Below are positions 54,063 to 56,045 of a stretch of 64,000 bases of DNA, in pieces. The position numbers and the translations under genes are program-made. The stretch is from the UHGV virus genome UHGV-0037280, one strand, 5' to 3'. The stretch comes from a virus. The notes under the pieces were generated by a model, which searched no databases, had not been told where the DNA came from, and saw only the letters and a program-made list of their open reading frames with translations. How positions within the stretch are numbered: the stretch's first letter is position 1; each line of letters begins with the position of its first letter.

Positions 54063-54079
54063 TCAATAAATCAAATTTA
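54063..54079 (-). promoter_or_regulatory. C1 operator upstream of the minus-strand icd/ant-like module
   Basis: minus-strand GTTGCTCTAATAAATTT. Confidence 0.65.
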
Positions 54080-54150
54080 TTAGAGCAACAACAATCTAGT
54101 TGAATGTTTCCTCTCTGAGGTTGCAATGTGCACACTTAGTGCCTTATTTG

Positions 54151-54167
54151 TATGCACTAATAAATAT
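54151..54167 (+). promoter_or_regulatory. C1 operator-like variant upstream of the 214-aa gene
   Basis: TATGCACTAATAAATAT, same ATGCACTAATAAAT variant as at 49785. Confidence 0.45.
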
Positions 54168-54349
54168 ATTATTTTTAATAATAAATAATTGACAACTGAC
54201 AAGTGACTTCAGTCAGAATCATCACACGCCCGGTACGGATGGATCCCTTTTCAAATATTCCATGGACGGCACAGTCTGAGTACCGGGCGCTACCTTCTGT
54301 TGTATTGCTAAGCCGCCGCTGGTGGCTTTTCTTTTTTGTAGGGGGCGCT

Positions 54350-54991
54350 ATGGATAAGAAAATATGCGTTGTTTCGATGAGCGTCGGCAAACCGGCGTCA
54401 ATGACTGCTGCATGGATCAACAACGAGCTGATAATGGCTGAGCGTACCAGCTACCCTGAACGCCGCCGCGACATGGAACTCCAGCTGCTGCGCGAATTGC
54501 GAGAAAAAGAGGAAAAGGGTTTTATCGTGCTGGTGGAAGAGGAAAACAGCTTTATTACTGGTCGAGTTGGCCAGCGTGTAAGGTTGCGCGATCCCTTCAT
54601 GAACGGCAGGCCGGTACTGATTGAAGCAATGCAGATTTACAAGGAGCTGGAACGCCAGAAAGCGATCAAGTTACCGCGCAAAGAATCCGGCAAATACATC
54701 CTCCACCAAAGCATCTTCGATTCCGAACATGACAAAAAAGGCGATGAATTTTTCAACATCAACTGGAGCGAAATAACGACAGAGCACGTTCTGACGTTGT
54801 TATGCTGCTTCGCAACGGAATACAACAACGTTGCAAGCTCCGACTACATCAGGGCAATGGCTGGAGAAATTGATACCCGCCAAGAACCTTCGTTACTAAG
54901 CTCCCTTGTGAATATAATTCAAGCTACTCATGAAATGACCGCACGGAAAGTGCCTCAAGGTTCATTAACCGGCAGAGATAATTATCTTTAA
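54350..54991 (+). CDS. hypothetical protein, no recognisable domain
   Basis: ATG at 54350 within ORF 54203..54991 gives 214 aa. Confidence 0.5.
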   Translation: MDKKICVVSMSVGKPASMTAAWINNELIMAERTSYPERRRDMELQLLRELREKEEKGFIVLVEEENSFITGRVGQRVRLRDPFMNGRPVLIEAMQIYKELERQKAIKLPRKESGKYILHQSIFDSEHDKKGDEFFNINWSEITTEHVLTLLCCFATEYNNVASSDYIRAMAGEIDTRQEPSLLSSLVNIIQATHEMTARKVPQGSLTGRDNYL

Positions 54992-55033
54992 ACTTCTTGG
55001 GCGCTAACTATGCGCCCACGCCCATTACATTAA

Positions 55034-55984
55034 TTAATCAATAAATACACGGAATGGCTCAAGCATCCCTTCAGGATCTTTATCCTCGTCACCAAGTGAT
55101 ATTAGTCTTCTGGCGAGTAGTTTTACATCATCATCATCTTTAATGAAGCCAACCTGATCATTATTAAAATAGATATCGATTATTTTTAGGATTTGCTCTT
55201 GTGTAAAATGATTGAATTTTAATAACTTTGCTACAACTCGATGTGTTGTGGCAAAACTGCCTGAGCGGCGTAATTCATCTATAGTGAAATTAACTTCCAT
55301 TTCCGCTAAGTTACTGGCTTGAGGAAAGTGCTCGCCTATAAACTCTGATAAGCGGGCATAGATATGTGGTTCTGAATCTTTCTTCTTTTTCCACTCGTAC
55401 TTCAAATACTCATTCATATCATCCTTTATAAAGGCACTTTTATAATCACCATCTTCAGTTATAATGTATATATCCTCTCCGTTTGGTATCGCTTTTAGCA
55501 AACACTCCCAATTGACTGCATCACCATATGATTTATTTTTACCCGGAGGGTTGCCAAGATCGAATCGGCGTTTCCCCTTTTCTATTGTTTCATCATCAGC
55601 CTCTATCTTAGACGCTGCATCAAAAATCCTTTTAATTACAACATCGGCAGCTAAAGACTCTTCTTTAAATAAGTTCTGTATATCGGTAATAATTTCATTC
55701 TTTAGCCGACTAGCTTCTATAACCTTATCATTAAATAGTGAATGTTTTTCATGCTGTCTGAAAATCTGTGGTAGCGCGGGCTTGTAGTCTTTTGCAATTT
55801 CCTTTATGGTTTCAGAGAGAACTTTAGAACGATTTCTCCAGAACTCATTCACTAAAAGTTCTGGCAACCAAAGTTTTAAACGACCATATTGATGTAAGGC
55901 AAATACTTTATCTAGCTCATCTAGTTTATCCTTACCCATTCGATAAAATTCTAAATATAGATTTGTATCAATAAAAACATTCAT
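55034..55984 (-). CDS. PIN-like domain predicted nuclease with uncharacterised C-terminal domain
   Basis: N-terminal VFIDTN acidic strand, PELLVNEF and IITEDGDY acidic positions consistent with a PIN/DUF4935-like fold; about 130-aa C-terminal extension. Confidence 0.55.
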   Translation of the reverse strand: MNVFIDTNLYLEFYRMGKDKLDELDKVFALHQYGRLKLWLPELLVNEFWRNRSKVLSETIKEIAKDYKPALPQIFRQHEKHSLFNDKVIEASRLKNEIITDIQNLFKEESLAADVVIKRIFDAASKIEADDETIEKGKRRFDLGNPPGKNKSYGDAVNWECLLKAIPNGEDIYIITEDGDYKSAFIKDDMNEYLKYEWKKKKDSEPHIYARLSEFIGEHFPQASNLAEMEVNFTIDELRRSGSFATTHRVVAKLLKFNHFTQEQILKIIDIYFNNDQVGFIKDDDDVKLLARRLISLGDEDKDPEGMLEPFRVFID

Positions 55985-56045
55985 ATCACATCCTAATTAT
56001 AAGTAATTTAGGCCACTCTAAAAAATAAAGTGGCCTAATAAGAAA

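Follow-up and report, generated by a model that had tools for sequence, protein, structure and literature searches.

A 64,000-nucleotide stretch of the virus genome UHGV-0037280 (here called the window) carries, in the interval between the P1-type genes mat and lxc, a 316-amino-acid (aa) open reading frame (ORF) whose product is a true member of the PIN family with a VapC-like fold. The gene appears to be a self-contained, horizontally acquired cargo, and judged from its sequence and surroundings it most likely, although by no means certainly, encodes a single-protein defense against phages or other mobile elements. An initial annotation of the same DNA had recognized the PIN-like character of the protein and had proposed a single-gene or two-gene antiphage module. 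Our analysis supports the former and identifies the supposed second gene as P1 mat.

The 316-aa protein joins a PIN_12 domain to a helical C-terminal domain

In the Pfam scan the protein matched PIN_12 (PF16289, formerly DUF4935) with an E value of 7.6e-18 and 65.9 bits against a gathering cut-off of 32 bits, and the match ran over residues 3 to 181 and over the full model (positions 1 to 172 of 172). PIN_8 was matched as well (E, 1.4e-14). The acidic motifs on which the initial annotation had based its PIN-like reading proved to be well chosen, for VFIDTN contains D6 and N8, LVNEF contains E47, and IITEDGDY contains D178 and D180, and none of these residues varies among 45 aligned homologues with identities down to about 34%; D114 and the R50-N51-R52 motif are likewise invariant. 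The AlphaFold2 model calculated from this alignment was confident (predicted local distance difference test [pLDDT] score, 90.7; predicted template modeling [pTM] score, 0.76) and placed D6 after β1, E47 after β2, D155 after an invariant PPGK loop, and D178 and D180 after β4. According to this model, the invariant residues occupy the expected catalytic positions of a PIN domain, and both the PIN fold and the conserved acidic metal-binding residues that define PIN_12 are present.

The NCBIfam scan of the protein gave no match, the PHROGs scan gave only a family of unknown function, a PDB sequence search returned no related solved structure, and a structure search of BFVD returned a single weak "PIN like domain" match (E, 5e-4). 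DUF4935 has been placed in the VapC-like group, where its function was listed as unknown and its genes as usually monocistronic (Matelska et al. 2017, PMC5499597). Our literature searches on PF18476/PIN_8 yielded nothing relevant.

Residues ~222 to 316 form a separate domain of six helices, which reached a pLDDT of 92.6 when modeled alone. A profile search with this domain against 1.84 billion representatives recovered 1323 clusters at E ≤ 1e-3, of which 833 also passed E ≤ 1e-10, and the top matches mostly show the layout of PIN plus helical domain or are fragments. A word-indexed protein search with the domain alone found just fragments of the same Escherichia coli protein. In one protein, P0350, the helical domain stands behind a TIR domain, which was hit by the PADLOC model ThsB1 with an E value of 6e-64. 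The C-terminal domains of P0350 and the window protein share 40% identity over 62 aa (E, 2e-10), and both proteins have an effector domain, a linker and the helical domain in the same order; however, the effector of P0350 is TIR instead of PIN, and the protein comes from one 1.7-kb metagenomic contig only.

The helical domain also connects the window protein to PDC-S34 of PADLOC, itself only a candidate system. Residues 226 to 297 match positions 298 to 369 of the 384-position profile (E, 1.4e-11), a segment that is also hit by members of the PIN family and by the TIR fusion. Nevertheless, the N-terminal ~300 profile positions are unmatched, whereas membership would imply a match across most of the 384 positions; the window protein is a different protein that has only the C-terminal domain in common with PDC-S34. 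Our literature searches found no mention of PDC-S34. A small domain carried on alternative effectors such as PIN and TIR would fit the modular pattern that is typical of conflict systems.

The PIN gene fills a variable interval between mat and lxc

As stated in the initial annotation, only about 4.9 kb separates cre from darB, and a 316-aa ORF convergent with its left neighbor lies between them (Table 1). In alignments to JL22, SJ46 and RCS47, the common backbone breaks off at the mat stop (54991) and is picked up again at the lxc stop (56048). The PIN ORF is the sole gene of the insert thus delimited, with flanks of 42 and 63 bp, the former being the distance between the convergent mat and PIN ORFs. 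Its GC content of 35%, compared with 48% for the window and 47 to 49% for mat and lxc-ulx, indicates a foreign origin. The lxc-ulx genes of P1 and of the window are 97% identical. Homology of mat to RCS47 and P1 was also seen to end ~70 bp short of the mat stop (54920-54991), while that to JL22 and SJ46 runs to the stop; the recombination that swaps the slot cargo therefore seems to reach the mat 3' end.

Fourteen P1-like elements were examined, and their mat-lxc intervals fall into nine distinct states. P1 has EcoPI res and mod on the same strand as lxc, with IS5 inside mod in that record, where the initial annotation had listed an IS1. The slot is empty (about 40 bp) in RCS47, pBS74R-D_2 and the W619 plasmid. 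SJ46 and 673R5 encode a RelA/SpoT protein, of which the SJ46 copy, when scanned, matched the PADLOC candidate PDC-S33 at full length (E, 7e-87); AR435 and pFORC64.1 encode a 435-aa SIR2 protein, and the scanned AR435 copy matched the PDC-S25, ThsA and LmuA SIR2 profiles. The remaining cargoes are a YaaC-family gene with a 169-aa gene (pMRSN16333_p2), an EAL gene with an HTH gene (pMUB-MIN9-2), IS1 with an HTH remnant (p2018-02-2CC_1), a 103-aa gene with icd/ant (p95NR1A), and the PIN gene (JL22 and the window). The interval has the features of a hotspot, namely a fixed backbone position, differing cargo, and known defense genes among that cargo (type III restriction-modification, SIR2, PDC-S33), and it is enriched in defense-type genes, although not exclusively. 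Our literature searches did not find a described hotspot at P1 mat-lxc.

These data bear out the expectation of the initial annotation that the locus varies across P1-like genomes and that the PIN gene is not part of the P1 backbone, since it fills exactly the interval that holds EcoPI res/mod in P1. The two cargoes have this interval and the lxc strand in common; they differ in that the proteins and their mechanisms are unrelated and that ~5 kb with two genes stands against 1 kb with one gene. As a separate observation, in two P1-like plasmids (L020 and L021, 7716-12802) darB is annotated as a shorter ~3.9-kb "helicase-related" gene followed by a Phd/YefM-RelE toxin-antitoxin pair, compared with the usual full-length darB of 6.8 kb.

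The neighboring 214-aa gene is mat

The initial annotation had taken the 214-aa ORF beside the PIN gene for an orphan, although mat was already in its own list of P1 genes. A megablast search of positions 53700 to 56300 against phage records matched P1, P7, RCS47, SJ46 and others at 96 to 97% identity over 54152 to 54920, and the feature annotated beneath this match is mat, "maturation control." The protein matches phrog_1837 over its full length (positions 1 to 212 of 212; E, 1e-109). In the P1 reference record (NC_005856.1), mat (2716-3468) follows ref and precedes res, with Omat and Pmat/LPmat in front of it, so the 214-aa ORF agrees with mat in both sequence and its location between the ref position and the variable slot. 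The Pfam scan of the Mat protein found no domain, which accounts for its orphan look. Moreover, mat was found next to all slot cargoes and also next to the empty slot; it is therefore a backbone gene and not half of a module.

Relatives of the PIN gene move without a conserved partner

The word-index search gave 157 family members of 315 to 335 aa from Enterobacteria, Vibrio and Bacteroidota. In Klebsiella and E. coli a CP4-type island (AlpA ... YeeP, YfjT, DUF932, antirestriction, RadC, CbtA) harbors the gene in its variable part, and the gene stays in place where an IS66 replaces the adjacent HNH gene. In Pantoea it is found at a prophage end beside a serine recombinase and a lysozyme, and in Vibrio and Flavobacterium it belongs to same-strand arrays of small ORFs separated by attC-like repeats of ~130 nt (TAACA...GTTA), which look like integron cassette arrays. 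No neighbor gene is conserved across the Klebsiella/E. coli island, Vibrio, Flavobacterium and Pantoea loci. Because no context offers a conserved partner, the gene is evidently mobile on its own and presumably acts on its own as well. Remnants of attC beside the window PIN gene were also considered and rejected, as the 42- and 63-bp flanks are too short. Outside P1-like elements, a relative of the PIN domain turned up in phage records only for the Ralstonia phages RSA1 (NC_009382.1, 12488-13120) and YO375_6, at ~27 to 28% identity over residues 3 to 201 (E, 3e-5 to 5e-5).

Two of these neighborhoods showed further features. In the CP4-type island (L004 to L008, 3692-5736), the 63%-identical PIN homologue is preceded by genes for a 404-aa protein without a domain and an HNH_2 protein, which may be another small defense candidate; in L006 an IS66 has inserted into the stretch, where an HNH_2 gene was not called. 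The Vibrio array with the PIN homologue (L009, 1-3717) begins directly after a gene for a 1915-aa protein with DUF4011, AAA_11, AAA_12 and MTES_1575 helicase domains.

Among 5426 complete E. coli genomes, the PIN insert was present in 30, always plasmid-borne and nearly always on plasmids of 90 to 108 kb, and the lxc-ulx backbone was present in 699 (~13%), which means that ~4% of P1-like elements carry the PIN cargo. Plasmid NZ_CP142921.1 has an identical insert (100% identity). The inserts represent two alleles, of at least 99% and of 90.6% identity, and the ORF is intact in the 29 full-length copies. Comparison of the two alleles gave a synonymous divergence (dS) of 0.39 and a nonsynonymous divergence (dN) of 0.031, and the resulting dN/dS of 0.079 demonstrates strong purifying selection on the PIN protein.

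The protein resembles Cosus in domain family but is not a member of its family

The literature search turned up one tested PIN_12 protein, Brc24, also named Cosus. It is a one-gene cassette of a class 1 integron that confers complete T7 resistance on E. coli, its T12A, D14A and D96A mutants lose more than 1e5-fold protection, and it has a fitness cost of 11% and is toxic in some hosts (bioRxiv 10.1101/2024.07.02.601719). The statement of the initial annotation that no named system could be assigned consequently needs qualification, because a tested one-gene PIN_12 defense does exist; it stands insofar as this system shares only the Pfam family with the window protein.

From the Cosus sequence (382 aa), which we recovered from plasmid pKAZ2, PIN_12 was obtained at 126 bits over residues 11 to 180 and model positions 1 to 172. 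Both proteins therefore carry a full-model PIN_12 domain above threshold, both are one-gene systems on mobile elements, and cassettes in integron-like arrays occur in either family. Judged by where the hidden Markov model (HMM) envelopes end, D6 and D178 of the window protein correspond to D14 and D177 of Cosus, and a local L-x-(A/V)-D motif suggests that D114 may lie opposite D96. On the other hand, the C-terminal region of Cosus is β-rich, whereas the shorter window protein ends in an all-helical domain, and the PADLOC scan of Cosus gave no match, PDC-S34 included. Cosus is predicted to form a hexamer. The common ground is the N-terminal PIN_12 domain, and homology over the full length, including the C-terminal region, was not found. 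By sequence comparison, the window protein is Cosus-like in domain family and gene organization but not a member of the Cosus family. Some relatives of Cosus itself (P0218, P0222, P0228 and P0235; ~462 to 467 aa) have an N-terminal cold-shock domain (PF00313) before PIN_12, which hints at RNA or single-stranded DNA binding by the Cosus family.

Nor is the protein a VapBC toxin, given the missing antitoxin and its different size and architecture: no adjacent cotranscribed VapB antitoxin gene is present, and instead of a stand-alone PIN protein of ~130 to 150 aa we find one ~2.3 times larger than VapC, with a long helical insert inside the PIN domain and an extra C-terminal domain of 95 aa.

Possible expression of the PIN gene from the lxc promoters

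The PIN gene follows lxc on the same strand at a distance of 63 nt. Equivalents of the sigma-70 promoters P1lxc and P2lxc lie inside ulx, with hexamers identical to those of NC_005856.1, and Lxc acts as a C1 cofactor in lysogens according to the P1 annotation. Since these hexamers are kept, Lxc is active in lysogens, and the hairpin between lxc and the PIN gene is not followed by a U-tract, read-through from the lxc promoters could express the PIN gene in the prophage. This hairpin, which the 90.6% allele retains apart from a single mismatch in the stem, may serve as an attenuator, a processing site or an operator. The hairpin between the convergent stops is kept in both PIN-insert alleles and is probably a weak bidirectional terminator. 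The P2mod promoter, which P1 has at the lxc stop, is not preserved in the window.

Table 1. Features of the window from cre to darB
Feature	Position	Strand	Remarks
cre	50844-51875	+	
103-aa gene, P1 c8	51926-52237	+	
immI-like unit	52479-54089	-	In place of ref; C1 operator, c4-a1b1 targets, C4 RNA, icd and ant; outside the cargo
ant	52479-53537	-	KilAC domain, E 1e-31
icd	53534-53755	-	NCBIfam phage_ICD_like
C4 antisense RNA	53803-53888		Rfam
c4-a1b1 targets	53957-54009		Rfam
C1-operator match	54073-54089	-	1 mismatch
mat	54350-54991	+	213 aa from ATG 54350; 250 aa from ATG 54239, as P1 annotates
Foreign cargo insert in the mat-lxc slot	54992-56047		1056 bp, about 35% GC
GC-rich hairpin (GGGCGC..GCGCCC)	54999-55017		Between the convergent mat and PIN stops; dG about -14 to -15
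316-aa PIN_12 nuclease gene	55034-55984	-	PIN ~1-210; all-helical C-terminal domain ~222-316
Stable hairpin, no U-tract after it	56008-56038	-	Between lxc stop and PIN start; dG -19.7 kcal/mol
lxc (modulator of C1), backbone	56046-56294	-	phrog_2160; P1 annotation; directly upstream of the PIN gene
ulx	56291-56731	-	
P1lxc equivalent, sigma-70	56339-56367	-	Inside ulx
P2lxc equivalent, sigma-70	56517-56545	-	Inside ulx
darB	56765-63532	-	Stop at 56765

An immI-like unit replaces ref upstream of mat

The initial annotation had included an icd/ant-like module in the restriction-modification slot. The module is present, but it takes the place of ref, upstream of mat and outside that slot; JL22 and RCS47 lack the immI-like unit and carry ref at this position. 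The C1-operator-like site noted before the 214-aa gene could also be found, with one mismatch. As it lies on the minus strand, upstream of a complete unit of c4-a1b1 targets, C4 RNA, icd and ant, it more probably controls this unit than mat. In the whole window there are 15 C1-operator matches, compared with 0.35 expected by chance. The same immI-like arrangement between c8 and mat is seen in phage vB_EcoM-Ro157c2YLVW, and in p95NR1A (L017, 5626-6956) the icd/ant pair sits in the mat-lxc slot instead, so the module, too, changes slots. Another C4 antisense RNA (47334-47421, plus strand), with an isrK-type small RNA (47210-47288) in front of it, lies just upstream of c1 (48839-49690), giving the window two C4-type regulatory loci. 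The Rfam scan of the whole window also found three tRNA genes, at 18568-18718 and 20722-20794 (plus strand).

Discussion

If the PIN gene is indeed a defense gene, the lysogen would express it, either by transcription that starts at the lxc promoters and reads through or from a weak promoter belonging to the gene. Its PIN domain would at first be switched off; once the helical C-terminal domain has detected a cue from the phage or brought about assembly, the Mg2+-dependent nuclease would cut RNA (tRNA, rRNA or mRNA, as VapC-like enzymes do) or phage nucleic acid. The infection would be halted directly or by abortive infection, and the lysogen would be protected together with its resident phage-plasmid.

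Several results weigh against a role in defense. PADLOC 2.0 matched no validated defense model in the window protein, the only hit being the 72-aa C-terminal match to the candidate PDC-S34. No similarity to Cosus could be detected, either by BLASTP (best E, 1.4) or by hhalign in local and global mode (probability, <0.1%), and a family-profile hmmsearch against 120 Cosus relatives found nothing, a test limited by the low diversity of the Cosus alignment (all at least 72% identical); the precedent of Cosus consequently rests on common membership in a Pfam family. The slot itself also takes in cargoes that are not defense genes (EAL plus HTH, icd/ant). In addition, there is no convincing conserved promoter, as the scan gave 7 sites compared with 6.1 in shuffled sequence, none of them upstream of the PIN start, and the TATAAT that precedes the start codon by 11 nt is missing from the 90.6% allele. 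Finally, the adjacent ulx and darB are antirestriction genes, so a counter-defense function is conceivable.

This last point leads to the possibility that the nuclease benefits the phage, as a counter-defense or host-takeover enzyme that degrades, for example, the RNA of the host or of a competitor when the phage grows lytically or enters the cell. The location of the gene directly downstream of darB-ulx-lxc on the same strand would suit such a role, as would the distant PIN homologue in the temperate Ralstonia phage RSA1. We nevertheless regard it as unlikely, because the gene is present in so small a fraction of P1-like elements, most homologues lie on chromosomes, within integron-like arrays or islands, and not in phages, the C-terminal domain is common to a ThsB-like TIR protein and a PADLOC defense candidate, and the sole tested PIN_12 protein is a host defense. 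About as doubtful, or slightly more so, is an addiction function, in which the VapC-like PIN protein would stabilize the phage-plasmid by post-segregational killing and an unannotated small RNA or peptide would be the antitoxin. The fold, the plasmid location, the conserved hairpin just upstream of the PIN gene, and the cost and toxicity of Cosus are all compatible with this idea, but the insert is too short to hold another gene, no neighbor is conserved in any context, the Rfam scan of the window gave no antitoxin RNA at the PIN locus, the protein is twice the size of a toxin-antitoxin-type VapC and has its own extra domain, and P1 already possesses phd/doc.

The two-gene module that the initial annotation had considered, in which the 214-aa gene and the PIN gene would form a defense or toxin-antitoxin-like pair, is very improbable. 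The two genes are adjacent, convergent and separated by a short gap, and the 214-aa protein lacks a Pfam domain; however, this gene is mat, which accompanies every other cargo and the empty slot, the boundary between backbone and cargo runs between the two genes, and PIN homologues elsewhere have no mat-like neighbor. We give equally little credence to a decaying or functionless hitchhiker left by a past recombination. Although low GC and a patchy distribution would be expected of such a gene, the intact ORF in all full-length copies of both alleles, the low dN/dS at considerable synonymous divergence, and the catalytic-type residues that are invariant across phyla all speak for a protein under constraint.

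Prophage defense hotspots, the PIN_12 family and the concept of a one-gene defense built on it are already known. As far as the searchable literature goes, the architecture of PIN_12 plus helical domain, the recurrence of its C-terminal domain in a TIR protein and in PDC-S34, and the hotspot at mat-lxc appear to be new. A broader reading, which we put forward tentatively and hold to be possible rather than probable, is that the PIN_12 plus helical-domain family (at least ~800 clusters) is a new and widespread single-protein defense, that its C-terminal domain is a portable sensing or assembly module, and that mat-lxc is an undescribed defense hotspot. If so, one helical module would be plugged onto a PIN nuclease, a ThsB-like TIR protein and the N terminus of PDC-S34, and the mat-lxc slot could be mined for further one-gene systems.

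Should the PIN gene prove to be without a phenotype, the finding would reduce to an ordinary accessory gene beside an ordinary P1 mat. If the defense function is true, the protein would extend Cosus-type PIN_12 defense to a second architecture, and the C-terminal domain common to PIN and TIR effectors would provide a tractable case of one sensor domain working with different effectors. P1-like phage-plasmids can spread from cell to cell in two ways, as a virus and as a plasmid, and with a fixed slot in which restriction-modification, SIR2, RelA/SpoT and PIN genes replace one another, they would serve as shuttles of compact immunity.

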